DNA of 64,000 bases from an uncultured Chloroflexia bacterium (GCA_963768675.1 CAVYIV010000015.1:156345-220344), one strand, 5' to 3'. Positions 5,047 to 23,039 are shown, numbered from the stretch's first letter. The notes: generated from the letters alone by a model not told the origin. Numbers and translations: made by a program.

Positions 5047-5481
5047 CTACTGCACCTGGACGCGCAGCATCCAGGCGTGCTTTTCGAAGATCTCTTCGAT
5101 CCCGATCAGGATCCCCTGGCTGACCGGATCGACACCGAGACGCTCGATCCGCTCCCGAAGGTGCGCGTTGAGGACGTCGATGCGGGACCCGATAAGGCTC
5201 ACTGCGTCTCGATCCGCGACGGTCCCGGCCGGGAAGGGCTCGAGCGGGGTGGCGGCGGCCACCGTGGCGGCGCGCCCGTCGGGGACTTCACGCAGAGCGG
5301 AGAGGCGCTCGGCCACGGTGTCGACCGAAGCGTGGGCCGACTCGACGATCTCATCGAGCTCGAGATGGACGGGCCGGAACAGCGGGCCGACGACGTTCCA
5401 GTGGGCCTGCTTACCCTGCAGAGCCAGGTCGAGCAGCTCGACGAGGCTGGCCTGAAGATCGGCTGTTGCGGGTGCGGACAT
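5047..5481 (-). CDS. dps: Dps family DNA-protection/ferritin-like protein
   Basis: Ferroxidase-site motifs HWNVVGPLF and HLELDEIVE are present, and the length (~145 aa) fits. Convergent with pgm. Confidence 0.85.
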   Translation of the reverse strand: MSAPATADLQASLVELLDLALQGKQAHWNVVGPLFRPVHLELDEIVESAHASVDTVAERLSALREVPDGRAATVAAATPLEPFPAGTVADRDAVSLIGSRIDVLNAHLRERIERLGVDPVSQGILIGIEEIFEKHAWMLRVQVQ

Positions 5482-5725
5482 GAGTTGAACCTCCACGATG
5501 GGCGAAGCGCGCCCGGTCGCACTCGTCGCTTCGTGTCATCGTCGAGCACCGTGAGCCCGACGGACAGGGCCCAAAGTCCCGATCAAACCCGGGCCGCGGC
5601 ATCATGACCGTGGCCGCCGCGGCCGGAGCGAAGCCGAGCGGGGTCGGGCGCCCGGCTGGCGGGCGGGGCACTTTCGGGTGATGGCCAGCGAGGAGCCGGA
5701 AGCATACGGTGACCGTCCTCACGCT

Positions 5726-6490
5726 ATGAACCGCACTGCCTCGCGCCTCCTCCTGCTGTGCCTGGGGATCCTTCTGGCCCTCGGGGCCTTCGGGCTGGCG
5801 CGCGCTGCCGGCGCGTCGTGCAGCCCGCTCGCATCCTCCCCGTGCGTTCGCGTGCTGTTCCTCGGCAACAGCTACACGTACGTCAACGACCTGCCAACTG
5901 TCTTCCGGGATCTCGCCCGGGCCGGCGGGCAAAACGTCGAGACGGGCATGGTCGCGAACGGCGGCGAGACGCTCGCGCAGCACGCGGTCTCGCCCGTGTC
6001 GCTCGACGCGATCCGGGGTTCGAGTTGGCGGTACGTCGTGCTCCAGGAGCAGAGCGAGATCCCGGCGCTCGCCTCGGTCTGGCGGAGCCAGATGTTCCCC
6101 GCCGCGGAGACGCTCGTTGCGGCCATCCGAGCAGCCTCGGCAACGCCGATCCTGCTCGAGACGTGGGCCCATCGCGACGGATGGCCGGAGCAGGGCCTCG
6201 ACCGCGCTGCGATGCAGGCCGCGATCAGCGAGGGTTACCGATCGCTCGGCGCCGACCTCGGGGTCGCCGTCGCACCGGCAGGCGACGCATGGCAGACGGT
6301 GCTGCGCGACGACCCGGCGATCGAACTCTGGCAGCCGGACGGAAGCCACCCCAGCCCAGCCGGGACATATCTCGCGGCGTGCGCGCTCTACAGGAGCATC
6401 TTCAGGGCCGACCCCGTCGGGATTCCCGACACCGCTGGCCTGGCGCCGGACGTGGCCCGGGCGCTCCAAGTCGCGGCCGGGCAGCCATAA
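5726..6490 (+). CDS. secreted SGNH/GDSL-like hydrolase, DUF4886-like
   Basis: Signal peptide plus an Ala-rich lipobox-like region. FLGNSYTYVNDLP is a GDSL-type block I, and the C-terminal DGSHPSPAGTYLAA is a block V-like motif. Confidence 0.55.
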   Translation: MNRTASRLLLLCLGILLALGAFGLARAAGASCSPLASSPCVRVLFLGNSYTYVNDLPTVFRDLARAGGQNVETGMVANGGETLAQHAVSPVSLDAIRGSSWRYVVLQEQSEIPALASVWRSQMFPAAETLVAAIRAASATPILLETWAHRDGWPEQGLDRAAMQAAISEGYRSLGADLGVAVAPAGDAWQTVLRDDPAIELWQPDGSHPSPAGTYLAACALYRSIFRADPVGIPDTAGLAPDVARALQVAAGQP

Positions 6491-7897: not shown

Positions 7898-8303
7898 TCT
7901 CGCTCGACACATCCTGGCTCGATGCGCTGCTCAACCGGCGCGATCGGGCCCACCAGGCGGCCGGGCAGGAGCTGGAGAGTGATCCGGGCCGTATCTCGTG
8001 CCGGCGGCGACGCTCGGGGAGCTCACCTTCCTCGTCGAACAGCGGCTGGGACTGCGGGTGCTCGACCTCGTTCTCGGTGACCTCGAGTCCGGTGCTTACA
8101 CGCTCGACTGTGGCGAGGCCGATCTGGCACGCACGCGGCAGCTCGTCGGGCGCTACGCGGACCTGTCTCTCGGATTTGTCGACGCCGCCGTCGTCGCCTG
8201 CGCCGAGGGCAGCGGCGGGCGGGTACTGACATTCGACCTCGGTGACCTCGGGGTCGTGGCGGCCGAGGGGACGATCAGAGTCCTGTCGGCACCGGCCTCG
8301 TAG
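7882..8303 (+). pseudogene. vapC: PIN-domain toxin VapC, disrupted by a 1-nt frameshift near codon 37
   Basis: The N-terminal piece MGSCLISLDTSWLDALLNRRDRAHQAAGQ sits in the frame of ORF 7867..8229 (GTG at 7882). The C-terminal piece ...LTFDLGDLGVVAAEGTIRVLSAP sits in the frame of ORF 7998..8303. The frames switch at about 7990. Confidence 0.6.
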
Positions 8304-8327
8304 GCCGGCCCGCCGCCGCATGTTGAC

Positions 8328-9371
8328 CTAGACGCGCTGGTCGGTGCTTGGCTTCTCCCACAGGTTGACGCCGCTGTCGACGGCGTAGAGGTCGATCTCG
8401 GCCAGCTCGTGGGGCGAGAAGGACAGGTTCGCAAGCGCCGCGACGTTCTCGCGCACCTGCGCGGGTGAGCTTGCCCCGATGAGCGTCGAGGTCACGCGCG
8501 GGTCGCGGAGCACCCAGGCGTAGGCCATCTGGGCCAGGGTCTGCCCGCGTCGAAGGGCGATCGCGTTGAGCCCCCGCACGCGCGCCAGGTTCTGCTCGCT
8601 CAGCATTTCCCGTTCGAACGAGTCGCCGCCGGGGCGATTGATACGCGAATCGGCGGGGATGCCGTCGAGGTACTTGCTCGTCAGGAGCCCCTGCGCGACC
8701 GCCGTGAACGCGATCATGCCGGCGCCGACCTCCTCGAGCGCGTCGAGCAGCTCCGGTTCGACCCACCGGTTCAAAAGGTTATAGGACGGCTGGTGGATCA
8801 GCAGGGGCACGCCCTCCGAGCGAAGGATCGCGGCTGCCTCGCGCGTCTTGGTCGCGGAGTACGACGAGATCCCCACGTAGAGCGCCTTGCCCTGGCGGAC
8901 CGCCGTGGCAAGCGCTCCCATCGTCTCCTCGAGCGGCGTGTCGACGTCAAAGCGGTGCGAGTAGAAGATGTCAAAGTAGTCGACGCCGACGCGACGAAGG
9001 CTCTGGTCGAGGCTCGCGAGGACGTACTTGCGCGAGCCGCCGCCCTGGCCGTATGGCCCCGGCCACATGTCCCAACCGGCCTTGCTGGAGATGATCAGCT
9101 CGTCGCGGTGAGCGGCGAGATCCTCGCGCAGGATGCGCCCGAAGTTGATCTCGGCGCTGCCGTACGGTGGTCCGTAGTTGTTCGCAAGGTCGAAGTGCGT
9201 GATCCCGAGGTCGAAGGCGGTTCGCACGATCTCCCGCTGCGTCGCCATCGGCGTGTAGTCGCCGAAGTTGTGCCACAGGCCCAGGGAGAGCAGCGGAAGC
9301 CGCAGGCCGGTCCTCCCGCAGGCCCGGTACGTCATCACGTCGTAGCGCTCGGGTGCTGATAGATAGGTCAT
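8328..9371 (-). CDS. aldo/keto reductase, YghZ / L-glyceraldehyde-3-phosphate reductase-like (Kv-beta family)
   Basis: 347 aa from ATG 9371, with a GGAGGA RBS. Motifs: MTYRACGRTGLRLPLLSLGLWHNFG, DLANNYGP and SHRFDVDTPLEETMGAL. The upstream part of the 656-aa ORF belongs to a separate gene remnant. Confidence 0.85.
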   Translation of the reverse strand: MTYLSAPERYDVMTYRACGRTGLRLPLLSLGLWHNFGDYTPMATQREIVRTAFDLGITHFDLANNYGPPYGSAEINFGRILREDLAAHRDELIISSKAGWDMWPGPYGQGGGSRKYVLASLDQSLRRVGVDYFDIFYSHRFDVDTPLEETMGALATAVRQGKALYVGISSYSATKTREAAAILRSEGVPLLIHQPSYNLLNRWVEPELLDALEEVGAGMIAFTAVAQGLLTSKYLDGIPADSRINRPGGDSFEREMLSEQNLARVRGLNAIALRRGQTLAQMAYAWVLRDPRVTSTLIGASSPAQVRENVAALANLSFSPHELAEIDLYAVDSGVNLWEKPSTDQRV

Positions 9372-9405
9372 CCTTGTGCATCCTCCAGGCTGACGGGGTC
9401 GAGCC

Positions 9406-10112
9406 TCAGCCCGCTGCGGTCCACTCCAGCCCCAGGCGGGCGATCGTGTCCGGCGTGGGGTTGCCCGTTCGGCCGTCCCAGCCGGCCATCCGGTAGTAGT
9501 CGTCGAGGGCGCCCTCGATCTCCGCGTGGTCGAGCGCGACACCGGCCGTGGGGCCCGTCCCCGCGAGCGGCCGGAACATCTTGGCGGGCAGGCAGTCCTC
9601 GCTGCGTCCAGGCCCTCCCGGGCGTTGACGGTGCGCAGCATGTTGAGGCGCCGCTCGACGATCTCCATGAGCTCGTCGAGGTCGAAGTCGTCCCAGCCCG
9701 TCACGGCCCGCACAAGATCGACCGTCTCCTGCGGCCCGAACAGCGTCCAGGCCGGGCCCCACACGAACTGGCACAGCGAGGCCGTGTCGAGGAACAAGTA
9801 GAACTGCTGGGTCCGGAGCGCGAAGCGGACCTTGTCCGGGCCGAGCGACAGGAACCCCTGCGCGGCGTCGAACCCGAGGAGCTTGAGCCGCTCGAGGGAG
9901 AGATCTGCGGCGCCCTCCTCGATCATCGGGTCGTGCTCGGACGACTGGTGGTCCGCCCCGAACGGGTTCACCGCGTAGACGACCGCGAGCGATCGCTTCG
10001 CCTGGGGCATGTGGCCGGGCGCCTCGGCTCCCTTGACCGTGACGAGCAGGTCGTGGCACTTCCCGATCAGGTCGGCGGCGCGCCGCGATCCGTGCGCCAG
10101 GATGTCGCCGAA
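9406..10112 (-). pseudogene. aldehyde:ferredoxin oxidoreductase (AOR, tungsten-type) C-terminal fragment, truncated and frameshifted
   Basis: GDILAHGSRRAADLIGK...VKGAEAPGHMP...TGWDDFDLDELMEIVERRLNMLRTVNAREGL lies in the ORF 8328..10298 frame. The tail ...DCLPAKMFRPLAGTGPTAGVALDHAEIEGALDDYYRMAGWDGRTGNPTPDTIARLGLEW lies in the ORF 9406..10296 frame. Only about 235 of ~600 aa are present, and the N-terminal W-binding domain is absent. Confidence 0.55.
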
Positions 10113-10367
10113 GCCCTCGCGCCTGGCCGACGTGGAGGATCCGGCCGGTGAACTCGCCTGGCACTCGCCTGCCTCCCATCGGTTGACCTGGGCACGCGCC
10201 CCGGAACCGGCGCCCGGGAGCCCCGGCTGCCGGGAGCCCGAACCCGCGTCCGCGACGCCTCTCTCGCGCATCTTCTTCCACGGCGAGGGCCGACACAACG
10301 GGAACCGGGAGAGCAGGTGGCGGAAGAGCGGGCCGGCCGCGGCGGAAGAGCGGGCGGCGGCGGCGCG

Positions 10368-10967
10368 CTACGCCCGGCGGACGAGCGCCTCGCGCTGGAT
10401 GGCGAGGAGCGACAGGGCATCAGTGATCCGCCCGTCCATGGTCATCGCCAGGGCGTCGTCGAAGGACACCCATTGCGTCGCCAGCTCCTCTGTCCCCTCG
10501 GGCGAAGGCGCGCCGGCGGCGAGGTCGGTCGCCACGAAGAAGACCGCGAGCTCATCCGTCACGGAGTTCGAGAGCGCGGCCCGGCCGAGCTCCCGCCACG
10601 TCGCCGCCTGGTACCCGGTCTCCTCGGCGAGCTCGCGCCTGGCCGCATCGAGAGCCGACTCGCCCGGGCCACCGCCGCCCTCCGGGATCTCCCACGAGTA
10701 CGCGTCGAGCGGGTAGCGATGCTGCCCGACGAGGACGACCCGATCGCCCTCGTCGATGGCGAGGATCCCGATCGCGCGATGGGCGAAGTGCACCACGCCG
10801 TAGATGCCGGGCGCGCCGTCGGGCCGGATGACGTCGTCGTGCCAGACGGTCAGCCACGGGTTCTCGTACACGACCCGGCGGGCCGTGCGCCGCCAGGGGC
10901 TCTCCGCCCGCGCCGGCCGGGCGACGGCAGGAGCTTCCGCCGGAGCTGATCCTCTGCGCCTGGCCAT
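10368..10967 (-). CDS. NUDIX hydrolase (ADP-ribose pyrophosphatase-like)
   Basis: Carries the Nudix box GGGGPGESALDAARRELAEETG. Confidence 0.8.
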   Translation of the reverse strand: MARRRGSAPAEAPAVARPARAESPWRRTARRVVYENPWLTVWHDDVIRPDGAPGIYGVVHFAHRAIGILAIDEGDRVVLVGQHRYPLDAYSWEIPEGGGGPGESALDAARRELAEETGYQAATWRELGRAALSNSVTDELAVFFVATDLAAGAPSPEGTEELATQWVSFDDALAMTMDGRITDALSLLAIQREALVRRA

Positions 10968-11171
10968 CGGTGATCTCCCTCCGCCTGCGCTTGCGACCGG
11001 AACGTCTGGGCCGGCCTCACAGACGGCCCAGGATGAACCTGGTGAGCGTCTTCGTATGGTCCATGCTGCCGGAGCTCACCTCGAGGATCCGGACCCGGAT
11101 CACCCGGGCTCCCAATCCGTGCCGCCGTCGGCCGCGAACCACGGTCGACTGCATCCCGCACCCGGCGCTCA

Positions 11172-11574
11172 TCGTGAAACTCAACGGCGACCCTCTCGCC
11201 CTGCTGCGCAGGCCGAGCACCGGCTACCTTGCTACCTCGATGGCCGATGGTTTGCCCCAGGTGACCCAGAGCCTGGGTCGATACGGACGGCGAGCATGTC
11301 ATCATCAATACGGTCCAGTCCCACCTCAAGGTCAGGAACATCGAGCGCGACCCTCGCGTGGCTGTCGCGATCTCGAGCCCGGAGGTCGCTGCCCGCTACT
11401 ATCAGGTTCGCGGTCGGATGGTGAGCACGACGACCGACGGCGGCGGCGAACACATCGAGATGCTCTCCATGAAGTAAACCGGCAGGCCCTATCCCTGGTA
11501 TGGGGGCGGGACCAGGTGCGGGTGATCCTGACGATAGAGCCGGAACACGTGAGCGGCATCAGGTAGAGCGCGGC
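11172..11574 (+). pseudogene. PPOX-class F420-dependent enzyme (pyridoxamine 5'-phosphate oxidase fold), three lesions
   Basis: Pieces in three frames: ...LLRRPSTGYLATSMADGLPQVT | (+1 shift) WVDTDGEHVIINTVQSHLKVRNIERDPRVAVAI...YYQVRGRMVSTTTDGGGEHIEMLSMK-TAA(in-frame stop at ~11476)-TGRPYPWYGG | (shift in a G-run) RDQVRVILTIEPEHVSGIR. Confidence 0.5.
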
Positions 11575-11736
11575 GGTTCGGGCCGAGGAACCGTGGCCGC
11601 GTTGGCCAGCGCTCGTCGACGCGTACAGCCGGGACGTTCAGGCCGGCGGCTGGATCACCGGGAGCGCGCTAGGCTGTGGCAGCGGAGTGGCCGGACCGAG
11701 CCCACCCGCCGCGCCGGGCCCGCGAAGAGGAGATCC

Positions 11737-12543
11737 ATGACCACGGAGACGATCCACGAGGAGGTCCGCGCCCGGTATGCGGCCGCGGCGCTCCAGGCAA
11801 GCGCCGGCGGCTGCTGCTCGGGCGAGCCCAAGCCGATCGGCCTGGCGCTCTACTCCGCGCTCGAGCGGGCGGAACTGCCCGAGGCGGCGGTCCTCGCTTC
11901 GCTCGGCTGCGGCAACCCGATCGCCGTGGCGGAGCTGCGCGAGGGCGAGCGCGTGCTTGACCTCGGCTCGGGTGGGGGGATCGACGTGCTCCTGTCCGCC
12001 AAGCGGGTGGGACCCACCGGGCGCGCCATCGGCCTCGACATGACCGACGAGATGCTGGCCCTGGCCCAGCGCAATGTCGCCGCGGCCGGGGCAACGAACG
12101 TGGAGTTCGTGCGCGGCCACATCGAGGAGATCCCGCTCCCCGCCGAGTCCGTCGACGTGGTCATCAGCAACTGCGTCATCAACCTCGCCGCCGACAAGCC
12201 CGCGGTGTTCCGGGAGATCGCGCGCGTGCTGCGGCCCGGCGGACGGATGGGCGTGACCGACATCGTCGCCGAGGACCGGCTCACCGCCGAGGAGCGTGCC
12301 GCGCGCGGCTCCTACGCCGGCTGCATCGCGGGTGCGCTCTCCTTCTCGGAGTTCCGGGCGGGGCTCGAGGCGGTCGGTCTCAGCGACATCTCCGTCACGC
12401 CGATGCATGCCGTCGCCGACGGGATGGTTAGCGCCATCGTGAAGGCGACCAAGCCAGCCGACGCGAAGCCGATGATCGACCTCAAGCTGCCCGAGCTGCC
12501 GGTCGTCAGCAGCGGCTGCTGCGGGGGAGAGGGCTGCTGCTGA
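11737..12543 (+). CDS. arsM: arsenite S-adenosylmethionine methyltransferase
   Basis: Carries the SAM-MTase motif [12 protein letters not shown], an N-terminal CCSGEP Cys pair and a C-terminal [11 protein letters not shown], which is typical of ArsM/AS3MT. A GAGGAG RBS precedes the start. Confidence 0.85.
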
Positions 12544-12974
12544 TGCGGATCGAGCGGGCGGAGCCGTTTGACGTCCCGGCCGTCGAGGCGCTCCTGACGA
12601 TGGCCGGGCTCCCGCTGGCGGGCGCAGCGGAGGCGCTCGAGACGGGCGTGGTCGCTCGCGACGGCGAGGCTGTCGTCGGTGCCGCATCTGTCGAGCGATA
12701 CGGCTCGGCCGGGCTCCTGCGGTCGGTCATCGTCGCGCCGGATCGACGGGGCGCAGGCCTCGGCCGCGACCTCGTGGCGGCTGCCGAAGAACTCGCCCGG
12801 GGCGAGGGCATCCGCGAGATCTACCTGCTCACCGAGACCGCGATTGGCTGGTTCCCGCGCCTGGGCTACGCGGCCGTGCCGCGCGGCGAGGCAGCGGCGG
12901 TCGTTGGCCGCTCGATCGAGTTCACCACGGCCTGCGCAGAGACAGCCGTCGCGATGCGCCGAGCGCTCGCCTGA
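12543..12974 (+). CDS. arsN2: GNAT N-acetyltransferase, arsenic-resistance ArsN2-like
   Basis: 143-aa GNAT protein (RRGAGLGRDLV...) whose start overlaps the arsM stop (ATGA). The ArsN2 family is commonly found in ars operons. Confidence 0.65.
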   Translation: MRIERAEPFDVPAVEALLTMAGLPLAGAAEALETGVVARDGEAVVGAASVERYGSAGLLRSVIVAPDRRGAGLGRDLVAAAEELARGEGIREIYLLTETAIGWFPRLGYAAVPRGEAAAVVGRSIEFTTACAETAVAMRRALA

Positions 12975-13002
12975 CGGGTCCGGCCGGCACGGGGTATCGG
13001 CA

Positions 13003-13454
13003 TCAGCGCGAAGCGAGCTCCCGCCGCGCGCGACGGGCAAGCTCGACGAACGGTCGAATGCGCATTGTGAGCTGCACCTGGGTCGCCCGGAAGGCCGCGA
13101 GCTTCTCTTCGTCGGACCCTCCAACTCGGCCGGGTCGTCGAGGCCCCAGTGGAGCGCGTTGTGCTCGCCCGGGAACACGGGGCAGGCCTGGCGGGCCCGG
13201 TCGCAGACGGTGATGACGTAGTCCCACGGCTGGTCTAGGAACTCCGCGACGGACTTCCCCCGCGCCAGGGACCAGTCGATCCCGACTCGGCGAGGACTCG
13301 CACGGTGTACGGGTTGACACCTTTCGGATCGGTGCCTGCGGAGTGGACCTCGAACTCCGGCCCGCCGATATGCCCGCAGGAGCGCCTCGGCGATCTGGCT
13401 GCGGGCAGAGTTGCCGGTGCACACGAAGAGGACGCGGATCGGTCTGCTCGGCAT
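13003..13454 (-). pseudogene. arsC: arsenate reductase, LMW-PTP/thioredoxin-coupled type, with three single-nt frameshifts
   Basis: CTGNSARSQIAEALL is the P-loop. GGPEFEVHSAGTDPKGVNPYTVRVLAESG lies in the ORF 13235..13582 frame. IDWSLARGKSVAEFLDQPWDYVITVCD...HWGLDDP lies in the ORF 12312..13832 frame. The C-terminal GSDEEKLAAFRATQVQLTMRIRPFVELAR lies in the ORF 13003..13422 frame. Indels fall in short G/C runs. Confidence 0.6.
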
Positions 13455-13832
13455 CGAGGTGGCCTCCATGGGGCGATGGGCTCGGCCGGCGGCGCGAACG
13501 GTCTGATCGAGATCACCCAGTTCAGCGTCGAGCCGCTCGAGTTCGACGCGATGGCGTTCGATGGCTGCCCGCTGCTCGGCAATCAGCGGCGCGAGGTCGG
13601 CGTCGATGTCGCCCCGTTCGAGACACAGCCGGGCAAGCCGTCCGGCATCCAGCGGCCTGAGTCCGAGCCGTCGGAGCGCGACCACGAGCCGCAGCCGGGC
13701 GAGGTCATCCGGGCCATAGGACCGATACCCATTCGGCTGCCGGGTTGCCGATGGGAGGACGCCGGTCTCCTCGTAGAAGCGGACAGCCGAGGCCGTCACG
13801 CTCGCCTGCTTCGCCAGCTCCGCCACGTTCAT
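13455..13832 (-). CDS. MerR-family HTH transcriptional regulator; reads in-frame into the downstream arsC
   Basis: The N-terminus MNVAELAKQASVTASAVRFYEETGVLP...GYRSYGPDDLARLRLVVALRRLGL is a MerR DNA-binding domain followed by a coiled coil. No stop codon occurs before the arsC start at 13454. Confidence 0.6.
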
Positions 13833-13838
13833 GCTTTG

Positions 13839-13869
13839 AGACTACACCTTCAAGTCAGTTTAAGGTCAA
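13839..13869 (-). promoter_or_regulatory. MerR-type promoter: -35 TTGACC, 19-nt spacer with dyad ACCTT-N9-AAGGT, -10 TAGTCT; the transcript is essentially leaderless
   Basis: Read on the minus strand the sequence is TTGACCttaaactgacttgaaggtgTAGTCTcaaagcATG. The overlong 19-bp spacer and the inverted repeat between the hexamers are the hallmark of MerR-family-regulated promoters. The ATG lies about 7 nt after the -10. Confidence 0.45.
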
Positions 13870-14012
13870 GCCAGCGCCTTGGCGTGGATCCTGCCGGGGA
13901 CAGGACTCGGGCCCGGGGGCATACTCCGCCGATCCGGGGGGCCGCGGACCGCCATGGCCAGGCCGAACCACCGGAAATGCGCATCTGGCGCGAGAGGGGG
14001 GTGGCCGTGAAC

Positions 14013-14674
14013 ATGGAACTTGTCGACCAGGTGTTGCACACCGCGGCGGCCGTGCTTGCGAGCGGGGCGATCTCAGGGAACGGGCACGGCAACGTCAGCC
14101 TGCGCGTTCCGGGCGCGGAGGAGATGTACTTCACCTCCGCCTCGTCCCTGAACGGGCTGGGGCCGGACGGCATCGCCCGCGTCGCGCTCGACGGGACGCT
14201 GCTGGAGGGCACCCTGCCTCCATCCAGGGCGCGGTCGTGGCGATGCACACGGCGATGTACCAGGATCGGCCCGACGTCGGCTGCGTGATCCACACGCACT
14301 CGCCGTTCGCGACCGCGTTCGCCGTGGCCAACCGCCCGATCGACTGCTGGATCGAGGCCCTCGCGATGTTCGGGCTGGCCGACGGCGTGCCGGTCGCGGC
14401 CTACGGGCCGCGCGGATCCGAGCAGGCCGTGGGCAACATCCGCGCGGCGGTGCGACCGGGAGTTCCGGCCGTCCTGCTCGCCAACCACGGCGTGCTCGTG
14501 TTCCACCGCACCCCGGACCTGGCCGTCCTCGTCGGCGGGGTGGTCGAGGAGGCCGCCCAGGCGGCGATCAACGCGCTCGCGCTGGGCGGTCCGGTCGAGA
14601 TCGCCGCCGACCTCCGCGCCGCGGCGCTGCAGCGGGCGATGACGTTCGAGACTGCCGGCACGAAGACCGCCTGA
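14013..14674 (+). pseudogene. class II aldolase/adducin-domain protein (FucA / MtnB-like) with one frameshift at ~14225
   Basis: The N-terminal piece NGHGNVSLRVPG...MYFTSASS...LDGTLLEGTLPPS lies in frame 0. The remainder IQGAVVAMHTAMYQDRPDVGCVIHTHSPFATAFA...ANHGVLVFHRT lies in the ORF 13745..14674 frame. Confidence 0.6.
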
Positions 14675-14728
14675 CACGGGCCCGTCGAGGGCGCGGAGGG
14701 CACACCGGGCGTGCCCCGGGGTGCCCGC

Positions 14729-15865
14729 TCAGGCGAGGGCGACTCCTGGTTCCGCCGATGCCTCGACGCGCCCGACGCACCAGGAGGCCACACCGGCGGC
14801 GGAGAACGCCTGCTCGACGGAGGCAACGCGGTCGGGCGCGATCGCGGCCAGCAGCCCGCCGCTCGTCTGCGGGTCGTGGGCCAGCGCGACGCGTGCCCCA
14901 TCGACGCCGGGCGCGACCACCAGGGCGGGCCCACGAACCGGCGGTTGTGGCCGGCACCGTCCGTCTCCAGGCCGGCGGCCGCCAGCGTGAGCGCGCCCGG
15001 CAGCGCCGGCAGTGCCGCCGCCTCGAAGACGAGCCGCGTCCCCGACGCGCGTGCCATCTCCAGCCCGTGCCCAAGGAGCCCGAAGCCGGTGACGTCCGTG
15101 GCGCCGCGAGTCCTGTGGGCGACGAGCACGTCGGCCGCAGCACGGTTCAGCGTGCGCATCGAGGCGATGGCAGCAGCTAGGTCGTCGGGTGCGGTCCGGC
15201 CCTGACGGGCACCCGAGACGAGCATCCCCGTTCCCAACGCCTTGGTGAGCAGAAGCACGTCGCCGGGCCGCGCGCCACCCTTGCGCGAGAAGTCGGTCCG
15301 GGTGCACGAGCCCGATGACGGCCAGCCCGAACTTCGGCTCGGGATCCCGGATCGTGTGGCCGCCGGCGAGCATCCCGCCGGCCTCGCGCACGACCCCCGC
15401 GGCGCCCTCGACGATGGCGGCCATCGCCGCCGGGTCCAGTGCCTCGGGGAACGCCGCCACCGAGAGCGCGAAGAGCACGCGCCCGCCCATCGCGAAGACG
15501 TCCGAGCAGGCGTTGGCGGCGGCGATCGCCCCGTAGGTCCGGGCGTCGTCCACGAGCGGAGGGAAGAAGTCGACCGTCCCGATGACGGCGAGCTCGTCGG
15601 TGAGCCGGTACACGGCCGCGTCATCGGGCGGATCCAGGCCGGCGATCAGGTCGACCGGCGCCGCGCCCGAGATCGCGCCGAGCCCGGCGAGCACGCCGGC
15701 CAGCACGTCGGCGCCGAGCTTCGCGGCGCAGCCCCCGCAATCGGTCAGGTCGGTCAGGCGCAGGCGCGGAGGGGCGAACCCGGAAGCCGCTGCGAGGGGC
15801 GCCCCGCACTCGATGCACAGCGGGCGGGTCGCATCGTTGTCGGCGCCGCAGCTTGCACAGATCAC
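14729..15865 (-). pseudogene. selD: selenide, water dikinase (selenophosphate synthetase) with two frameshifts
   Basis: The N-terminus has a Zn-ribbon and LTDLTDCGGCAAKLG (the GCGCK-type loop). The middle GDVLLLTKALGTGMLVSGA...ATDVTGFGLLGHGLEMARASG lies in the ORF 14401..15624 frame. The C-terminal TSGGLLAAIAPDRVASV is back in the ORF 14729..15865 frame. Confidence 0.7.
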
Positions 15866-16687
15866 CGGAGACTCCCCATCGCAGGCCAGGTGCCGAACAG
15901 TAGATCACGGAGTGCGGGACGTCGGCAGCTGCGGCGTCGCTGACGGCGGTGCCGCCCGCGACTGCGCCGCCGGTGATGGCTCAGGGGAGGGTGATCGCGC
16001 GGTCGACCCTGGAGTGCGAGGCGAGGATCGCGGCGAGCTCGGCCGCGAGGCCCGCCATGCGCCGGTTTCGGGCTCGTCGCCACCATCACGACCCGTGCCC
16101 CTGCCGGGATACCCTTGAGCCCGCCATCCGGGTGGAGCAGCACGCCCGCCGCGCCTCGGATCGTCAGGAGGTCGTCGGGATGCGCGTCCGATGAGACCCG
16201 CCAGGCGTTCGGGCCGGTGGGCAGACCGCGGAGATCGGCCCGCCGATGGCGGCCATGGAGGCGACCACGACGACCGTCGTGGAGGCGCTCGGGATGACCG
16301 GCTCGTGGTCGGCCGGAGCCTTGATCGCCATCCGGTGGGCACCGTCGGCTTCGACGATCACGTATGCAGCGCTCGTCTCGGCGAAGAGGCGGTCGATCGC
16401 CTCCGGCGGCGGGCCGCCGAGCTTGCCCTGCCCACGATCCACGGCGACGAACAGCGGGAGTCCGGGCACAAGGCCGCCTCGACGACGGCCGGCTCGGCGG
16501 ACCAGCAGATCGGTTTGCCCGGCTGGTCGGCTCCCACCCTGGTGGTCGTCGTGAGGATGACCCGGGCGCCGGCCGCAGCGAGGTCGCGGCCGAGGGTGAA
16601 CAGGATGGTCGACTTGCCACCGGCGCCGACGATCGACACCAGCTCGCGTTCGCCGAGCCCGAGCCGTTCCGCCAGGGAGAGGGTCAT
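15862..16687 (-). pseudogene. yqeC: selenium-dependent molybdenum hydroxylase system accessory protein YqeC, with two frameshifts
   Basis: ELVSIVGAGGKSTILFTLGRDLAAAGARVILTTTTRV lies in the ORF 16358..16687 frame. VPLFVAVDRGQGKLGGPPPEAIDRLFAETSAAYVIVEADGAHRMAIKAPADHEPVIP lies in the ORF 16164..16469 frame. The C-terminal GVLLHPDGGLKGIPAGARVVMV lies in the ORF 15862..16620 frame. Its stop overlaps the selD start (ATGA). Confidence 0.65.
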
Positions 16688-17491
16688 CGGCTCCCGTCGT
16701 TCAGCCAGGCCAGGATCGCCTCGAGCACGCCGCCGCCGACGGCGAGCGCCTTGTCCGAGACGTGGGCGATGGCGTCACGCTCCGATCGGGGATCGACGTC
16801 GCCGATCTTGAGCCCCACGGTCACGCGACCGGGAGCGATCATCCCGCGGACAATCCCGCCGATCGTGGCCCGGACCGGGGAATCGCCGATCGCCCCCAGT
16901 GGCTGGCCGGCCGTGACGATCTCGCCGAAGCCAACGCTCCAGGTGAGGTCTCCGTCCGCGTGCGCACGGAGGACGCGCTCGGCCGAGGCGCCGCCGAGCT
17001 CGCCCGGAACGCCCGTGTTGGGGAACGCGGGCCCGTTCCAGATCACGCTCCCGAGGCGGTACCCGCGCATCGTCTCGACTACCGCGTGAGCAGTCCACCC
17101 CTGCGACGAAGCCGGGGCCGAGCCCGACGACGAACGGCGCCTGATCGAGGCGGGTGTCGAGCGCCTCCTTGGCGACCCGTGCGTCGACGAGCACGGACAA
17201 CGGCACCGGGAACTCCGGCACGTCCGCGGAGACCAGCACCGGCACGGCGCCGCGGCGTGCCGTCGCCACCGCCTCCTCCGGCGTTCCGACGAGGACGCCC
17301 TCGATCCCGTCGATCTCGACCCGGCCGTCCGAGACCGCCGAGGAGAACGCGACGGTCCGGCGGACCGTCAGTGGCCGCGCGAGGTCGAGGACGACAACGG
17401 GAAACCCCGCCCGTCGGAGGCGCCAGGCGACGCCGGACCCGATGTCCCCGCCGCCGCGGACGACGACGAGATGCCCGGAGAAGAGGCTCAC
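16684..17491 (-). pseudogene. yqeB: selenium-dependent molybdenum hydroxylase system protein YqeB, with one +1 insertion at ~17090
   Basis: HLVVVRGGGDIGSGVAWRLRRAGFPVVVLDLARPLTVRRTVAF...GLGPGFVAGVDC lies in the ORF 16775..17491 frame. Then (an extra T shifts the frame) HAVVETMRGYRLGSVIWNGPAFPNTGVPGE...GLKIGDVDPR...SDKALAVGGGVLEAIL lies in the ORF 16684..17070 frame. Confidence 0.7.
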
Positions 17492-18279
17492 GAGGGGGCG
17501 CGGCGGTTCGAGGCGATGACCTCGGACATGATCGACACCGCGAGCTCCTCGACGGTCTCCGCGCCGATCTGGAGCCCGATGGGATTATGGATGCGCTCCA
17601 GCGTCCCCGACGTGACATCGGACGCGGCGAGGGCCTGCCTGGTCGCCTCCCAGCGGCGCCTGCTTCCCATCACCCCGATGTAGCGGGCCGGGGTCTCGAG
17701 CAGGAGCGGCACGATCTCGGCGTCGATGTCGTAGCTCCGCGTGACCGCGACCACCGAGGTGTCCTCCGTGATCGGGAATGCCGCCAGGGCCGCGGCGACG
17801 CTGCCGCCGAAACGGACGTCGGCGAGCGGCATCGCCTCGGCCGTGACCAGCTCGGTCCGCTCGTCGACCGCGACCGTGCGGTAGCCCAGCCAGTGGGCGA
17901 GGTCCACGACGGCCTTGCCGACGTGGCCCGCTCCGATGACGTACACCGTGTGCGGACTCATGTAGGGCTCAAGGTAGACGGTCATGGTGCCGCCGCACAC
18001 GCCCGGATCGCCGCGCTCGGGGTCCTGCAGCTGGTAGCTCCGGAGCGCCGTTTCGTTGCTCTGCATCGCCTCGAGCGCGTCGAGCCGGATCGCGTCCTCG
18101 ACCTTGCCTCCGCCGATCGTCCCGACGGTGGACCCATCGGCGTGGACGACCATCTTCGTCCCCGCATGGCGAGGCACGGAACCCTGCGTGGCAACGATGG
18201 TGGCGAGCACGACGCGCTGCCCGCCGCTGAGCGCCTCCGAGAGCTCCGCGAGGATGCGCTCGGGCCGGGTGACGCTCAC
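17488..18279 (-). CDS. xdhC: XdhC/CoxI-family molybdenum cofactor insertion chaperone
   Basis: Has the XdhC N-terminal domain (VVLATIVATQGSVPRHAGTKMVVHADGSTVGTIGGG) and a Rossmann-like C-terminal domain (TVYVIGAGHVGKAV). The GTG start overlaps the upstream TGA (GTGA). Confidence 0.75.
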   Translation of the reverse strand: MSVTRPERILAELSEALSGGQRVVLATIVATQGSVPRHAGTKMVVHADGSTVGTIGGGKVEDAIRLDALEAMQSNETALRSYQLQDPERGDPGVCGGTMTVYLEPYMSPHTVYVIGAGHVGKAVVDLAHWLGYRTVAVDERTELVTAEAMPLADVRFGGSVAAALAAFPITEDTSVVAVTRSYDIDAEIVPLLLETPARYIGVMGSRRRWEATRQALAASDVTSGTLERIHNPIGLQIGAETVEELAVSIMSEVIASNRRAPS

Positions 18280-21171
18280 GACGCCTGAAGCGCCCGCCAG
18301 ACCCGTTCCGGCGTGAACGGGATGTTGTTGATCCGGGCCCCGGTTGCGTACGCGATGGCGTTCCGGATGGCGGGCGCCGCGCCGTCCAGCGGGATCTCCG
18401 CGATCGCCTTGGCACCGAACGGCCCGCTGGTCTCCATGGTCTGCACCAGGATGGCTTCCAGCCGCGGCATCTCGTCGGCCCGGTAGATCTTGTACGGCCC
18501 GAACGCGGCGTTGACCATCCGCCCGTCGACGTCGTACGCCATCTCCTCGCAATGGGCGTAGCCGAGGGCCTGGACCATGCCGCCTTCGACCTGACCGGAC
18601 GCGGTGACCGGGTTGATCGGCACGCCGCAATCGACAGCCATGACGAGCTGTTGGACCGTGACCTGGCCGGTTTCGATGTCCACCTCGACCTCGGCGAACT
18701 GCGCCGCGTATGGTGGCGGCGATGCCGGCGACACGTACGAGGCGGTCGCCATGATCTGGTGCTGGCCCTGCTGGTGGAGGGACGACAGGGCGATCTCCCC
18801 AAGGGTCACCGACCGGCCGTCCGCCGACCAGGCGGCCCGGTCGTGGAGCTCGACCGAGGCGTTATCGACGCCGAGCAGGAGCGCGGCGCGGTCGATGATC
18901 TGGCCGCGGACCTGCTCCGCTGCGCGCTTGACGGCGGTTCCCGAGATGTAGGTCGTGCTCGAGGCGTAGGCCCCGGTGTCGAAGGGCGTGAGGTCGGTGT
19001 CGGACGAGTAGACGACGATGTCCTCGGTGCCCACGCCGACCACCTCTGCCGCGATCTGCGCGAGCACGGTGTCCGAGCCCGTCCCGAGGTCCGTCGCGCC
19101 AACGAGGAGGTTGAACGAGCCGTCGTCGTTGATCTTGAGGCTGGCGCCACCCATGTCGAGGCCGGGAATCGCGGTGCCGTGCATCGCCATCGCAAATCCG
19201 AGCCCGCGCCGGACGTGGGGCCGGTCAGCCGGCTGCCTCCAGGCAGGGTCGTCACGCCGCTGCCAGCCGATCGCCCGCTTGCCTTGGAGCACGGCCTCCT
19301 CGAGGCCGCTCGACATGATGATCGGCACGCTGCCCGCGCCCGGGTCGCCCTCGCCGAGCTGGGGCGCGATGTCGATCGGGTCGCCGACCTTCGTCCAGTT
19401 GCGTCGACGGAACTCGATCGGGTCCATCCCGATGGCTGCCGCGATGTCCTCCATGTGGGCCTCGAGCGCGAACAGCGCCTGCGGGGCGCCGTAGCCGCGG
19501 TAGGCGCCCGGCACGGGGATGTTCGTGTACGCGACTTGCAGTCGAAGCGCTTGAGCGGGCTGTTGTACGAGCTGAGGCCGCGCATGCCCGACACCATCTG
19601 GACGGTCAGCCCGTGGGTCCCGTAGGCGCCGGTGTTCGCGACGATCCGCATCTCCTGCGCCGTGAGCTTCGCGTCCGCGTCGACGCCGGTCCGGAAGGTG
19701 ATCGTCTGGGGATGCCGGGTCCGGGAGCGAGATGAACTCCTCCTCCCGTGTCAGCTCGAGCCGGACGGGACGGCCGGTCGCGATCGTGAGGTGGGCGACG
19801 ATGTCCTCGATGAGCATTTCCTGCTTCGCCCCGAAGCCGCCGCCGATCCGCGGCTTGATGACCCGGATCTGGCGCACCGGGAAGCCCGAGGAGCGGCGCA
19901 ATCATGCGCCGGACGTGGAACGGGACCTGCGTCGATGACGTAATCTCCAGTCGGTCGTCGCTGTCCCAGCGCGCGATCGCGATGTGCGTCTCGATCGGCG
20001 TCTGCTGCACCTGGTGCACGCGGAAGGTCTGCTCGAAGACGCGCTCGGCCGCGGCGAACCCCTTCTCCACGTCGCCGGTCTCGGCCTGGATGTGGTGGAC
20101 GATGTTGTGGCCCGCGTCGTGGGCGCCGTCGAGGTCGGGCTCGTCGTGGATCACCGGGGCGCCGTCGAGGATCGCCTCGTTCTCGTCGAAGACCGCGGGG
20201 AGTACCTCGTAGGTCACCTTGATCAGGTCGAGCGCCGCGAGCGCGATCTCCTCGGTGTCGGCCGCGACGGCCGCGACCCGGTCGCCGACGTAGCGCACCT
20301 TGTCGTCGAAGCTCACCTGGTCGTAGGGCCTAGGGTTCGGGTAGCTCTGGCCGCCCGACGCGTAGCGCACCCTCCGCACGTTCCCATGGTGGAGCACGGC
20401 GTGGACACCGGGGAGCACCCTTGCTGCGGTGTCGTCGATCGACACGATGCGGGCATGGGCGTACGGGCTGTAGAGGACTTTGGCGATCAGCGTCCCCGTG
20501 AGGTCCCGGTCGTCCGTGAACGCGGGGTTTCCCTTGGCCAGCTTCACCGCGTCGGTCTTCGTCTCGGCATGGCCCACGACGCGCGTGGCGGGCACGTCCT
20601 CGCTGAGGACGACCCGTGGCGAGATCGGTCCGAGCCCGTCTCGATCGTGGTGCGGCGCGTCCGATCCCGTGAGCCGGTCGAGATGCGCCACCTCGACGTT
20701 GTCGGGGGCCTCCCCGCGTATGATCGCGGCCGCCCGCAGGACCGCGTGCACCGGGCGCAGGTAGCCGGTTTCCCGGTCGAGGATCCCCGAGAGCGCAGAC
20801 CTGACGTCGGCTTCCGTCGGCGTGGGGTTCTTCTCGATCAGCGCCTTCGCCGCGAGGATCATCGCGGGAGTCGAGTAGCCGGACTGGATCGCGCCGGTGT
20901 CGATGAAGGCCTGTTGGATCGGGTGCATCCCCCCGGGGACGGCGAGACCTTCGACCGTCTCGATCTCGTGCCCCTCGGCCTGGGCAGCCAACATCACGTC
21001 CCCGGACACCAGCCGGCCGTCGACGAGCACCGCCGCCGCGCCGGTCTCGCCCGTGCCGGAGCCATACCGCACGCTGTGGAAGCCGGCGCGCCTCAGCACC
21101 GCCCGCAGCGACTCGTGCGGCTCGCAGGTCAGCGTTCGGCGTGCCCCGTTGATGTTGAGCGTGATCGTCAC
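18276..21171 (-). pseudogene. xanthine dehydrogenase-family molybdopterin enzyme: fused cysteine-less [2Fe-2S]-like domain plus Mo-binding large subunit, with one frameshift at ~19880
   Basis: The GTG at 21171 overlaps the stop of the FAD-subunit gene, and a GGAGGGGG RBS precedes it. The first ~155 aa have the 2Fe-2S-subunit fold (ITLNINGARRTLTCEPHESLRAVLRR...ETVEGL...NPTPTEADVRSALSGIL), but every Cys ligand is substituted: RYGSGTGETGAAAV, AIQSGYSTP and ILDRETGY. Then come Mo-subunit blocks (LYSPYAHARIVSID, RIGGGFGAKQ). The frame switches from ORF 19606..21909 to ORF 18276..19901. Confidence 0.65.
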
Positions 21172-21909
21172 GCCTGATCGCCCCCTCCGATTGTGGTCAG
21201 CGCGCGTGCCGTGAGCACCGCCGCGAGATGGGCCCGGTAGACAGACGAGCCGCGGAAGTCCGCGGGCGGATCCAGCTCCGCGATTTGCTCCGGATCCACG
21301 AGCACCGGGTGGGCGGCGACCCCCGACATGGCAGTCCGCGTCGTGCCGGCGGCGTCGCGGTGAGCCACGACCATCACGATGGGACGGTCCATCGGCGTGC
21401 GAGCGGTTCCGTGCGCCGCGGCCTGACCGCCCACGGGGACCGTGACGCTCGTGATCACGGCTCCCGCGAGCACGTGTGGGTCGCCCAGGACCGCCTCGAG
21501 CGGGATGTCGGCGATCGAGCCGGGCCGCGCGATGCTGACCCGGGCGCCGAAGGCGAGAAGCCCGGTGAGCAGCGGGCTCTCCGGGTCGGCCGCCCCGACG
21601 GTGCCGCCCACGGTCGCCGCCTCGCGGATGGTGCCCGGCGCCTCGAGACGCGCCAGATCGCGAAGCGTCCCGGGGACCAGGCCCGAGTCGACGACCTCCT
21701 GGAGTCGGGTCATCGCCCCCAGGCGGACCCATCCGCTGCCCGGTCTCGATGCCGCCGAGGTGCAGCGCCTGCAGGTCGACCGCCGCGGCGGACGTCCGGC
21801 CGGGACGTGCGTTGAGGGTCGTTCCGCCGGCAAGGACGACAGCGTCGGGGAGCGCAAGTAGCGTGAGCGCCTCTTCGAGCGTGAGCGGCCGGTAGTACTT
21901 CATGTTCAC
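21168..21909 (-). pseudogene. xanthine dehydrogenase-family FAD-binding subunit (CoxM/XdhB-like) with one frameshift at ~21740
   Basis: The N-terminal piece MKYYRPLTLEEALTLLALPDAVVLAGGTTL lies in the ORF 19606..21909 frame. The remainder GWVRLGAMTRLQEVVDS...GTIREAATVGGTVGAAD...FRGSSVYRAHLAAVL lies in the ORF 21168..21857 frame. Confidence 0.6.
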
Positions 21910-21919
21910 GTCCGACTCT

Positions 21920-22912
21920 TCACTCTTCCAGCCTGTCGTTCACGCCCTCCCGGGCGGCCGCGCAGGCAAGCTCAGGCGCAGGGGATGATGCGGGACGGCA
22001 CTCGCCCAATGGTACAGGCCTGCTCAACGGGCGACGCCTCGCAGCCGCCCTACGAGGGCCGCGCGCACCCGCTTCGGGATGCGCGCGACGAAACGAGCGC
22101 CGGAGCAGGCCGACGTGTGGCTCGGCGGGACGCGCCTTCGCGGGCAGGGCAAGGTAGGTCCGGTCTCGCGGGTGCGGCGGCAACCGGTTCGAGGGCTCCC
22201 GGTTGGCGCCCCGCTCGACGAAGGCGAGGTTGTGGTAGAAGCTCACCGACCTCACGGACAGGTCGAGGGTGCTCGGCACATAGCCCGGAACGTCGAGCTC
22301 GGCGTAATTGAGCCCGTCGGTGAGCGCCTGCAGGAAGGTCATCGACGTTCCTGACCGATCGGCCCCGCTGGAGCCTCCATACGTTCGCTCCCAGTACGAC
22401 GTCTGAAGGTCTTCGATAGCGTAGATCCCGCCCTCGGTGAGGTGACCGAACAGGTGCCTGAAGCTCGCGATCACGTGCGCGCAGACGTGGCTGCCGTCGT
22501 CGACGATGACGTCGAACGGGCCATACCGGCTCGCGACCTCGTCAAGGAACCGCGGGTCGCTCTGGTCCCCCTGGAGAACGACGATCCGGTCCTCGGCGAT
22601 CCCCGTCTTCGGTTGGATGTCGATGCCGACGATGCGCGCCAGGGGGAAGAACTCCTTCCACATCCGGAGTGACTCCCCGCCCCTCTCGGGATCGGCGTAG
22701 CCGCCGATGCCGATCTCGAGGAGCGTGATCGCCCGTTCGCGCAGGTGGCCGAGATGCCGCTCGTAGGCATCCGCGTACGAGTGGGCGCCCTCCTTGTCGG
22801 TGCGCATCTCCCGCGCGATCTCGCGGAGTGACCGTTCGCTCACGACGAGGTGCCTCCTGGGTGTGGAGCGGGCCGGACCGGCTACGCCGGGGGCCGGCGG
22901 AGACGCCACCAA
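21920..22912 (-). CDS. class I SAM-dependent methyltransferase (Methyltransf_24 / TylF-MycF-like O-methyltransferase); the C-terminal ~90 aa are low-complexity, possibly a lost stop
   Basis: LLEIGIGGYADPERGGESLRMWKEFFPLARIVGIDI is a SAM-binding motif I, and DVIVDDGSH is present. The family is normally ~230-260 aa, whereas the ORF is 330 aa. Confidence 0.45.
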   Translation of the reverse strand: MVASPPAPGVAGPARSTPRRHLVVSERSLREIAREMRTDKEGAHSYADAYERHLGHLRERAITLLEIGIGGYADPERGGESLRMWKEFFPLARIVGIDIQPKTGIAEDRIVVLQGDQSDPRFLDEVASRYGPFDVIVDDGSHVCAHVIASFRHLFGHLTEGGIYAIEDLQTSYWERTYGGSSGADRSGTSMTFLQALTDGLNYAELDVPGYVPSTLDLSVRSVSFYHNLAFVERGANREPSNRLPPHPRDRTYLALPAKARPAEPHVGLLRRSFRRAHPEAGARGPRRAAARRRPLSRPVPLGECRPASSPAPELACAAAREGVNDRLEE

Positions 22913-23039
22913 ACGCGCCGCGAGGATAGCAGCCGGTTCCGGAGGCCTCGTCGTACCGGGTCAGGGCCGCTCAACGGGCGACGAGCCGGGTTCGGGGCCC
23001 GCGGGCGATGCTAGGATCGGCAGCGTGGCAGCGCGCTGG

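Follow-up and report, generated by a model that had tools for sequence, protein, structure and literature searches.

A predicted MerR-ArsC fusion regulator behind its own MerR-type promoter in an uncultured Chloroflexia bacterium

The MerR-family gene tipA is autoregulated and has two start codons, from which it produces TipAL and the more abundant TipAS (PMC7762955). A two-product design like that of tipA is also reported for AlbA/AlbAS. The defining features of MerR-family promoters and activators are a spacer of 19 to 20 bp that holds a palindrome and activation by DNA distortion (PMC9909328). For arsenic, a fusion of ArsR with ArsM has been described as ArsRM (PMC10190100). Here, we analyzed a 64-kb stretch of DNA from an uncultured Chloroflexia bacterium (the window; all coordinates are those of this whole stretch, which has a GC content of 71%). 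It contains a minus-strand gene, merR-arsC, in which a MerR-type DNA-binding module is fused to an arsenate reductase (ArsC) domain behind a MerR-type promoter. We propose, with a probability of roughly 0.55, that this gene encodes a one-component, autoregulated, arsenic-responsive MerR activator in which the ArsC domain would serve as the sensor. The fusion itself is almost certainly genuine.

To our knowledge, all characterized arsenic regulators are ArsR-type or two-component systems, and all characterized cytosolic ones are ArsR/SmtB repressors that respond to trivalent arsenic. Our literature searches, exact phrases included, found no description of a MerR-ArsC regulator. A 2024 metallostasis review assigns arsenic sensing to ArsR only and mentions no MerR-ArsC fusion, and a 2021 review of the MerR family, which contains no word beginning with "arsen," likewise mentions none (PMC9909328). 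The parts are all of known kinds (MerR module, thioredoxin-type ArsC, and TipA-like dual translation), and it is their combination and the implied sensing logic that are undescribed.

The merR-arsC fusion and its family

After correction of the frame breaks described below, the gene and its domains (lengths in amino acids, aa) are as follows.

13003-13832, minus strand: merR-arsC fusion gene, frame-corrected, 276 aa; stop codon TGA at 13005-13003
13623-13832, minus strand: MerR winged helix-turn-helix (HTH) DNA-binding domain, aa 1-70 (PF13411, 51.9 bits, cut-off 21.6; PF00376, 42.8 bits, cut-off 28.2)
13482-13622, minus strand: dimerization (coiled-coil) helix, aa 71-117 (AlphaFold2 helix at 60-117, with a predicted local distance difference test score [pLDDT] of about 85-90)
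13003-13454, minus strand: thioredoxin-type (pI258/LMW-PTP) ArsC domain (PF01451, 67.2 bits)

A Pfam scan of the protein found MerR and LMWPc domains only, and the TipAS domain (PF07739) was not among the matches. The MerR HTH match covers the first 60 residues of the open reading frame (ORF), and the LMWPc/ArsC match begins at residue 134. Residues 1-106 align one to one with E. coli CueR, and the AlphaFold2 monomer model predicts a long helix directly after the HTH, as in MerR-family proteins. The model has a mean pLDDT of 86 and a predicted template modeling score (pTM) of 0.59, and its winged HTH, helix 60-117, and ArsC domain are confident.

The preliminary description of this locus had suspected that the MerR part lacks metal-binding Cys residues. 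The alignment of homologues agrees: there is no Cys after the helix, and the segment that joins the coiled coil to the ArsC domain has no metal-binding Cys loop. An invariant Asp occupies position 77. Among the cysteines of the MerR half, Cys70 alone is conserved (at least 90% of 89 sequences), and it corresponds to Phe70 of CueR. In the alignment, Cys70 matches neither of two candidate counterparts, the metal-ligand Cys79 of ZntR/MerR and Cys52 of AdhR/NmlR. The ArsC half has its expected residues. The P-loop C138-X5-R144 (C138-T-G-N-S-A-R144), Cys210 and Cys217 (in VCDRARQxCP), and Asp233 (in HWGLDDP) are each at least 90% conserved across 89 sequences, and C210, C217, and D233 align with C82, C89, and D105 of B. 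subtilis ArsC.

The corrected 276-aa protein has at least 120 homologues among cluster representatives. They are 268-290 aa long, come from NCBI, JGI, ENA, and Logan assemblies, and have both MerR and LMWPc in their precomputed domain annotation. These are 69-87% identical to it over 92-100% of the query (96-100% for all but one). One of the intact homologues, P0001, is 87% identical over 100% of the corrected length. Homologues carry the source names "MerR family transcriptional regulator," "arsenate reductase," or [quoted passage not shown] In a species-level genome collection, the full-length loci all came from Chloroflexota metagenome-assembled genomes (MAGs), save one binned as Actinomycetes. 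Many are labeled Candidatus Limnocylindrales or Limnocylindria, the latter being an abundant, uncultured class of soil and peat Chloroflexota. An exhaustive search at the 50%-identity cluster level returned only a few full-length MerR-ArsC clusters, and a sample of more distant relatives with two domains consisted of ArsR-ArsC fusions or tandem LMWPc proteins (P0126 and P0173 are such ArsR[HTH_5]-LMWPc fusions). At the level of sequence clusters, this marks MerR-ArsC out as a tight, lineage-restricted family.

One alternative is that merR and arsC were joined by an assembly error that erased a stop codon. The window does contain many indel errors (see below), which could favor this. However, more than 100 sequences from independent assemblies share the uninterrupted architecture, and among them is L081, a related contig on which all called genes are intact. 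Furthermore, there is no stop codon in any of the three frames across the junction. These observations refute a frameshift or assembly artifact as the origin of the fusion, and we give it a vanishingly small chance. The original claim that a MerR HTH runs without a stop into an LMW-PTP-type ArsC is therefore borne out, by the Pfam scan and by the more than 100 intact homologues.

The preliminary description overlooked three frame changes that are needed to read through the ArsC half. The breaks were located by DNA alignment to two related loci, L082 and L081.

13377, minus strand: first frame break, a 1-nucleotide (nt) insertion relative to homologues (CTCCTgCGGGCA)
13283-13285, minus strand: second frame break, a 1-nt deletion in a G run (GAGTCGGGGATC to GAGTCGGGATC), which brings the original frame back
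13120-13126, minus strand: third frame break, a 1-nt deletion (GTGGAAGGG to TTGGAGGG), which leaves the true C-terminal 37 aa out of frame
12312-13002, minus strand: read-through tail of a 506-aa ORF, artifactual and noncoding, antisense to the neighboring genes arsN2 and arsM and without homology

The ArsC half is thus spread over frames. The starting frame holds ...VCTGNSARSQIAEALLRAY and the second frame holds GGPEFEVHSAGTDPKGVNPYTVRVLAES. The first frame then returns with GIDWS...HWGLDDPAELEG, and the third frame holds SDEEKLAAFRATQ...RRELASR, followed by the stop at 13005-13003. We rejected the 506-aa ORF (12312-13832) as a real product. Homologues stop at the equivalent of 13003, and the net -1 frame error in the ArsC half makes this ORF a read-through artifact.

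Indels of this kind are not confined to merR-arsC. L081 is an NCBI MAG contig that is syntenic with window positions 14008-23578 and 93.7% identical to them, and we used it as the reference for an indel count. There are about 17 single-nt indels over these 9.6 kb (about 1 per 565 nt), and the genes that they hit in the window are called intact on L081, with full Pfam domain sets. For example, in the window copy of a SelD-like AIRS gene, the AIRS_C match is gone from the stretch bounded by compensating indels at 15287 and 14930. Other indel-hit genes, in window positions 8300-11600, include an aldehyde:ferredoxin oxidoreductase-like gene near 9480 and a PPOX/F420-type gene at about 11150-11566. 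Given that similar indels disrupt window genes with intact counterparts on L081, assembly errors are the most likely cause of the three frame breaks in merR-arsC, and the window is probably an indel-rich assembly from long reads. We also considered programmed frameshifting in arsC. It is unsupported, because the indels are absent from L081 and L082 and there are like indels in unrelated window genes. ORF-level readings anywhere in the window need frame correction.

If the indels were instead real, the window copy would be a decaying pseudogene with a nonfunctional ArsC half, from which a MerR domain with a scrambled tail, or nothing, is made. With three indels in its 830 nt (about 1 per 277 nt), the fusion gene has roughly double the indel density of the flank, and it is more diverged from L081 (82.8% identical) than the flank is. 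The left operator arm is also off consensus (see below). Even so, the flank rate leads one to expect about 1.5 indels in the gene, and an excess of this size is not significant. The window also has breaks of this kind in housekeeping genes whose L081 counterparts are intact, and two of the three indels in merR-arsC are single-base deletions in short homopolymer runs (G4 to G3 at the second break, and AA to A). Furthermore, the corrected frames are stop-free, keep all of the catalytic residues, and encode a protein 87% identical to P0001. We therefore regard a pseudogene as quite improbable.

Promoter, operator, and predicted internal translation start

Three further elements lie upstream of merR-arsC or between its two domains.

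13839-13869, minus strand: MerR-type promoter, with -35 element TTGACC at 13869-13864, 19-nt spacer at 13863-13845, and -10 element TAGTCT at 13844-13839
13846-13866, no strand assigned: operator dyad ACCTTaAAc-TGA-CTTGAAGGT (family consensus ACCTTCAAG-N3-CTTGAAGGT)
13452-13468, minus strand: internal Shine-Dalgarno (SD) sequence GGAGG at 13468-13464 and in-frame ATG at 13454-13452 (Met127), 9 nt downstream, in the interdomain linker

The promoter fragment reads TTGACCTTCAAGnnnCTTGAAGGTGTAnnnT. Its overlong spacer and palindromic operator (TTGACC-19 nt-TAGTCT, with the dyad at 13846-13866) are those expected of a MerR-family promoter. The preliminary description had proposed this promoter with a dyad in its spacer, and had noted that about 40 bp stand out as AT rich. 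Both points hold, and those 40 bp are 45% GC, compared with 71% in the whole window. Only the dyad spacing needed revision, from N9 to ACCTT-N11-AAGGT.

The strongest argument for this promoter comes from relatives. Across related loci its consensus is TTGACCTTCAAG-N3-CTTGAAGGTGTAnnnT-N6-ATG/GTG, and the block cTTGACCTTCAAGnnnCTTGAAGGTGTAnnnT-N6-ATG/GTG is conserved nearly base for base in about 48 of them. The family dyad is a 9+3+9 palindrome. TTGAC is present in 50 of 54 pattern hits, TAnnnT likewise in 50 of 54, and the spacer is 19 nt in every hit. In loci encoding proteins 60-75% identical to that of the window, the upstream DNA cannot be aligned apart from the promoter block. By itself, the window motif is weakly unusual: the bare ACCTT-N11-AAGGT pattern, with at most one mismatch, has one hit in the window, and 20 of 100 shuffles give at least one. 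Conservation in about 48 independent loci beside unconserved flanks is, on this comparison, not chance. There are no other operator copies in the 64-kb window, for example before arsM, and a standard promoter scan of positions 11400-14100 found no promoter with an optimal 16- to 18-nt spacer.

Nearly all loci with a gene for the MerR domain also have the operator, and loci with a stand-alone arsC only lack it, save for a degenerate remnant in L054. This is as expected if the MerR domain binds the operator, and we predict that the fusion protein very probably binds its own promoter. The L054 remnant (1700-1760) is of separate interest. There, a stand-alone arsC starts M-PIRVLF directly behind a degenerate MerR-type promoter that has kept its right half-site and -10 element and lost its -35 element, and it looks as though a former fusion had lost exactly its MerR domain.

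In the window, the -10 element TAGTCT is followed by caaagc and then by the ATG of the fusion gene, and the same 6-nt gap precedes the start codon in 43 loci. With the start codon so close to the -10 element, transcription would be expected to start at or next to it, which implies a leaderless mRNA. This fits the earlier proposal that the ATG is at the transcription start.

The GGAGG...ATG that had been noticed at the fusion junction also proved to be conserved. An in-frame ATG or GTG lies 4-7 codons before the RVLF motif in 41 of 41 fusions examined, and 40 of these have a purine motif resembling an SD sequence (GGAGG, AAGGAG, or AGGAGG) 4-13 nt ahead of it. Elsewhere in the same genes, this combination of motif and start is found at 0.43% of codons. 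The linker residues are variable, and the residue at the predicted internal start alternates between Met and Val. Such alternation would be expected of a start codon rather than of a constrained residue, and the conservation here is of nucleotides in a linker of variable protein sequence. Met127 also aligns with residue 4 of the stand-alone Deinococcus indicus ArsC2 chain and coincides with the N terminus of stand-alone ArsCs. The internal start would imply a second product, predicted to be a free ArsC of about 150 aa, and we lean toward the view that this start is used.

Neighboring genes and promoter targets

Two arsenic genes lie downstream of merR-arsC in the window.

11737-12543, plus strand: arsM, arsenite S-adenosylmethionine methyltransferase, 268 aa (NF008823, 281.2 bits, cut-off 263)
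12543-12974, plus strand: arsN2, GNAT N-acetyltransferase, 143 aa (NF040501, 128.2 bits, cut-off 125)

As described earlier, these plus-strand genes converge on the minus-strand fusion gene, which starts at 13832, and both score above their NCBIfam cut-offs. The arsM stop and arsN2 start codons overlap (TGATG), and the window arsM is 73-84% identical to the arsM genes that adjoin fusions in 15 other loci. The arsN2 and merR-arsC genes end 28 nt apart in convergent orientation (12975-13002), and a standard terminator scan of positions 11400-14100 predicted no intrinsic terminator. Because of this arrangement, induced merR-arsC transcription could run antisense through arsN2 and arsM.

The preliminary description also stated that there is no ArsR/SmtB repressor. 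This is correct for the 64-kb window, in which a tblastn search with 144 neighbor proteins from related loci detected no ArsR. It is not correct as a trait of the family. In relatives, arsR is often immediately upstream of the MerR-type promoter of the fusion, and in the syntenic L081 an ArsR is encoded 1.3 kb from it. Besides the fusion gene and its neighbors arsM and arsN2, the same search matched only a second methyltransferase (about 32560-32880) and unrelated genes, and it detected no Acr3. The gene for this second methyltransferase (32527-33033, minus strand) is ArsM-like or UbiE-like and more distant, with 36-41% identity to the arsM neighbors of fusions. A hit at 44674-45690 proved to be a radical-SAM protein and not a transporter.

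Synteny with L081 (9817-10850) stops at the fusion gene, where identity falls from 93.7% in the flank to 82.8%. The genes downstream of the fusion are arsN2-arsM in the window and a radical-SAM/SPASM gene plus arsR in L081. This change of neighbors at the end of synteny places the arsenic module, as judged from the alignment, at a recombination or replacement boundary.

In relatives, the promoter has several targets. It precedes merR-arsC and then acr3 in L007, L010, L023, and L030, and merR-arsC and then a MIP channel gene, with overlapping stop and start codons, in L011, L020, and L022. In another five loci (L018 [5080-5855], L039, L044, L035, and L021), the operator and predicted leaderless start come before a Metallophos_2 phosphoesterase gene, which is followed in the operon by merR-arsC. 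L008 (5174-5935) and L012 (5044-5805) have a second, divergent MerR-type promoter (TTGACATTCAACCAACTTGAAGGTCTAGCCT), with a 5' untranslated region and an AAGGAG SD. Its target is a 226-aa ArsC with a Phosphatase-like_N extension and a CVHNAGRSQ P-loop. In L028 (1509-2960) and L034 (1140-2604), the operator lies downstream of the fusion, before a gene for a sulfite-oxidase-family molybdoenzyme (Oxidored_molyb plus Mo-co_dimer, about 460 aa), an unexpected member of the putative regulon. Among the two nearest genes on each side of the fusion in about 40 loci, we also found the following families to be enriched (counts, downstream + upstream).

Acr3/SBF: 6 + 2
ArsM-like methyltransferases: 5-6 + 8
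ArsP: 4
MIP: 3
ArsR-type HTH_5: 3 + 9
GNAT: 3
Thioredoxin: 2

These targets bear on the possibility that MerR-ArsC is a general thiol/disulfide-stress switch, in which Cys210 and Cys217, with or without Cys70, would be oxidized by any disulfide or electrophile stress, so that redox state and not arsenic is reported. The metallophosphoesterase and SUOX-family molybdoenzyme targets are not arsenic specific, and the ArsC cycle ends in a disulfide that thioredoxin can reduce (PMC10483234). Redox-sensing members of the MerR family also exist (SoxR and NmlR), and both are weak profile matches to the fusion protein. However, most of the recognizable targets and neighbors are arsenic genes (acr3, MIP, a second arsC, arsM, arsP, and arsR). 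Furthermore, a pure redox switch would have no use for the oxyanion-binding P-loop and Asp233, and yet both are fully conserved. A redox switch therefore seems a poor candidate to us.

Separately, a stand-alone paralogous arsC of Limnocylindria overlaps the stop codon of phoU (PF01895) through ATGA or GTGA in L052, L060, L066, L070, and L075 (about 5980-6150 in each). This suggests that phoU-arsC is a translationally coupled pair, which would link arsenate reduction to the phosphate regulon.

Proposed mechanism and comparison with known systems

MerR-family proteins carry their effector-binding domain at the C-terminal position. In MerR-ArsC, this position is taken by a complete thioredoxin-type arsenate reductase domain. 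We propose that the MerR domain dimerizes through its long helix and sits on ACCTTCAAG-N3-CTTGAAGGT in the overlong 19-nt spacer of its own promoter, where the full-length dimer would keep the promoter inactive before the signal. Entry of arsenic would then change the state of the ArsC domain. The likeliest route would be arsenate turnover to the Cys210-Cys217 disulfide ("looped-out") form, and arsenite bound by the ArsC-domain thiols would be an alternative signal. In pI258-type ArsC, formation of the disulfide comes with a large local rearrangement, and thioredoxin resets the enzyme (PMC10483234). A change of this kind, relayed to the MerR dimer, would under-twist the DNA and turn the promoter on. 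The mRNA starting at or beside the ATG would give the full-length regulator, and the internal SD and ATG/GTG would give the free ArsC enzyme, in the manner of TipAL/TipAS. In relatives in which the same promoter drives acr3 or a MIP channel gene, reduction and export would be coinduced. Because ArsR is often encoded next door, a division of labor is suggested, in which As(III) would be sensed by the adjoining ArsR and As(V) by MerR-ArsC.

The sequences themselves show the fusion and its catalytic residues, the promoter and operator and how they co-occur with the MerR domain, the arsenic genes around the locus, and the conserved signals of the internal start. We infer DNA binding to the operator, activation by distortion, the nature of the inducer, and the use of the internal start. 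The steps differ in how much confidence they deserve. It is likely that the fusion protein is arsenic responsive. That As(V), or its catalysis, is the signal is a tentative suggestion and more doubtful. More speculative still is the complete scheme, in which MerR-ArsC would be the first MerR-class arsenic sensor and the first cytosolic regulator to detect arsenate itself. In that scheme, catalysis-driven looping out of Cys210-Cys217 would under-twist the promoter, thioredoxin would reset the sensor, free ArsC would close a negative feedback loop, and ArsR would handle As(III).

Several observations weigh against an arsenic-responsive activator with an ArsC sensor. First, the three frameshifts could be real, which would make the window copy a pseudogene. 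Second, the window promoter drives only the fusion gene, with arsM and arsN2 on the other strand and without an operator, and its left half-site (ACCTTaAAc) is off the family consensus at two positions. Third, some promoter targets in relatives (the metallophosphoesterase and the sulfite-oxidase-family molybdoenzyme) are not obviously arsenic genes, and many relatives carry ArsR beside the fusion, so that arsenic sensing needs no fusion. Fourth, the ArsC domain scores 120 bits with TIGR02691, below the equivalog cut-off of 174.3, and is on this profile evidence a relative of the pI258 family and not a curated equivalog. Finally, linker residues 118-126 have a pLDDT below 50 and the pTM of the model is 0.59, and so the model gives no evidence of mechanical coupling between the ArsC domain and the HTH.

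Another explanation is that the enzyme is tethered without allostery. The MerR domain would then be an ordinary autoregulator, constitutive or responding to another cue (e.g., through Cys70), and ArsC a catalytic passenger. The fusion might merely secure coexpression. Alternatively, the stop codon that once separated merR from arsC might have been lost and this state frozen, with the former ribosome-binding site of arsC continuing in use. The flexible linker, modeled at low confidence, would suit such a protein, and the internal SD and start look exactly like the start of a once-separate arsC. ArsR beside many fusions could do the arsenic sensing, and at least 90% of sequences retain Cys70 in their DNA-binding domain. 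However, a MerR promoter with a 19-nt spacer is inactive without an effector-induced change (PMC9909328), and the protein offers no other candidate effector domain, since there is no metal loop and ArsC comes directly after the coiled coil. The fusion has also been kept without a stop in more than 100 sequences, to about 45-50% identity. Furthermore, the C-terminal domain of TipA-class proteins autoinhibits the MerR part (PMC7762955), so even a passenger would be expected to affect activity. We therefore consider a tethered enzyme without allostery unlikely, although less so than a redox switch or a pseudogene.

If our preferred reading of MerR-ArsC as an arsenic-responsive activator is true, then a MerR-type activator with a working arsenate reductase as its effector domain would be a second class of arsenic regulator. 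The catalytic cycle of an enzyme would be the sensing event, possibly with direct sensing of As(V). The system is compact, consisting of one gene and a 31-bp promoter, and is strongly conserved in Limnocylindria. It might also provide a new chassis-independent part for arsenate biosensors. Also, the conserved internal start would extend the TipAL/TipAS design, in which a regulator and its free effector domain come from one ORF, beyond antibiotic resistance.

The DNA-binding half is most similar to CueR (TIGR02044, 59.6 bits; CueR structures PDB 1Q05 and 4WLS, E value of about 1e-11), and the window promoter (TTGACC, 19-nt spacer, and ACCTT...AAGGT dyad) bears a close resemblance to the E. coli copA promoter. 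Unlike CueR, MerR-ArsC has no equivalents of Cys112 and Cys120, and its TIGR02044 score is far below the cut-off of 147.4 bits, which sets it apart from the heavy-metal MerR proteins. The sensor position here is held by a whole enzyme domain.

That enzyme domain is 48% identical to D. indicus ArsC2 (8P5N/8P6M; template modeling [TM] score of 0.91-0.95, with 0.93 for 8P5N) and 34-39% identical to B. subtilis and pI258 ArsC. Like the thioredoxin-coupled ArsCs (S. aureus pI258, B. subtilis, and D. indicus ArsC2), it has their fold (TM score of 0.88-0.95) and keeps the CX5R P-loop, the Cys82/Cys89 pair, and the DDP motif (PMC10483234). In contrast to them, it is fused behind a transcription factor module and falls below the TIGR02691 cut-off, and its activity is a prediction. 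MerR-ArsC also resembles the ArsR-fused arsenic enzymes, in that a regulator and an arsenic-detoxifying enzyme share one polypeptide. In those fusions the regulator is an ArsR/SmtB repressor released by As(III), whereas here it is a MerR-type activator module with a distortion-type promoter.

There is also a close parallel in design with TipAL/TipAS and AlbA/AlbAS. In each case, a single gene behind its own MerR-type promoter encodes a MerR HTH followed by a coiled coil and, at the C terminus, an effector domain. In tipA, a second in-frame start within the gene yields the C-terminal domain alone, which handles the toxic compound (PMC7762955), and the predicted internal start of merR-arsC is conserved in 40 of 41 fusions. 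The difference is in the effector domain. TipAS has an antibiotic-binding fold (PF07739), whereas the C-terminal domain of MerR-ArsC is a predicted catalytic arsenate reductase of the LMW-PTP type, and its presumed inducer is an oxyanion or metalloid rather than the thiopeptide that induces TipA.

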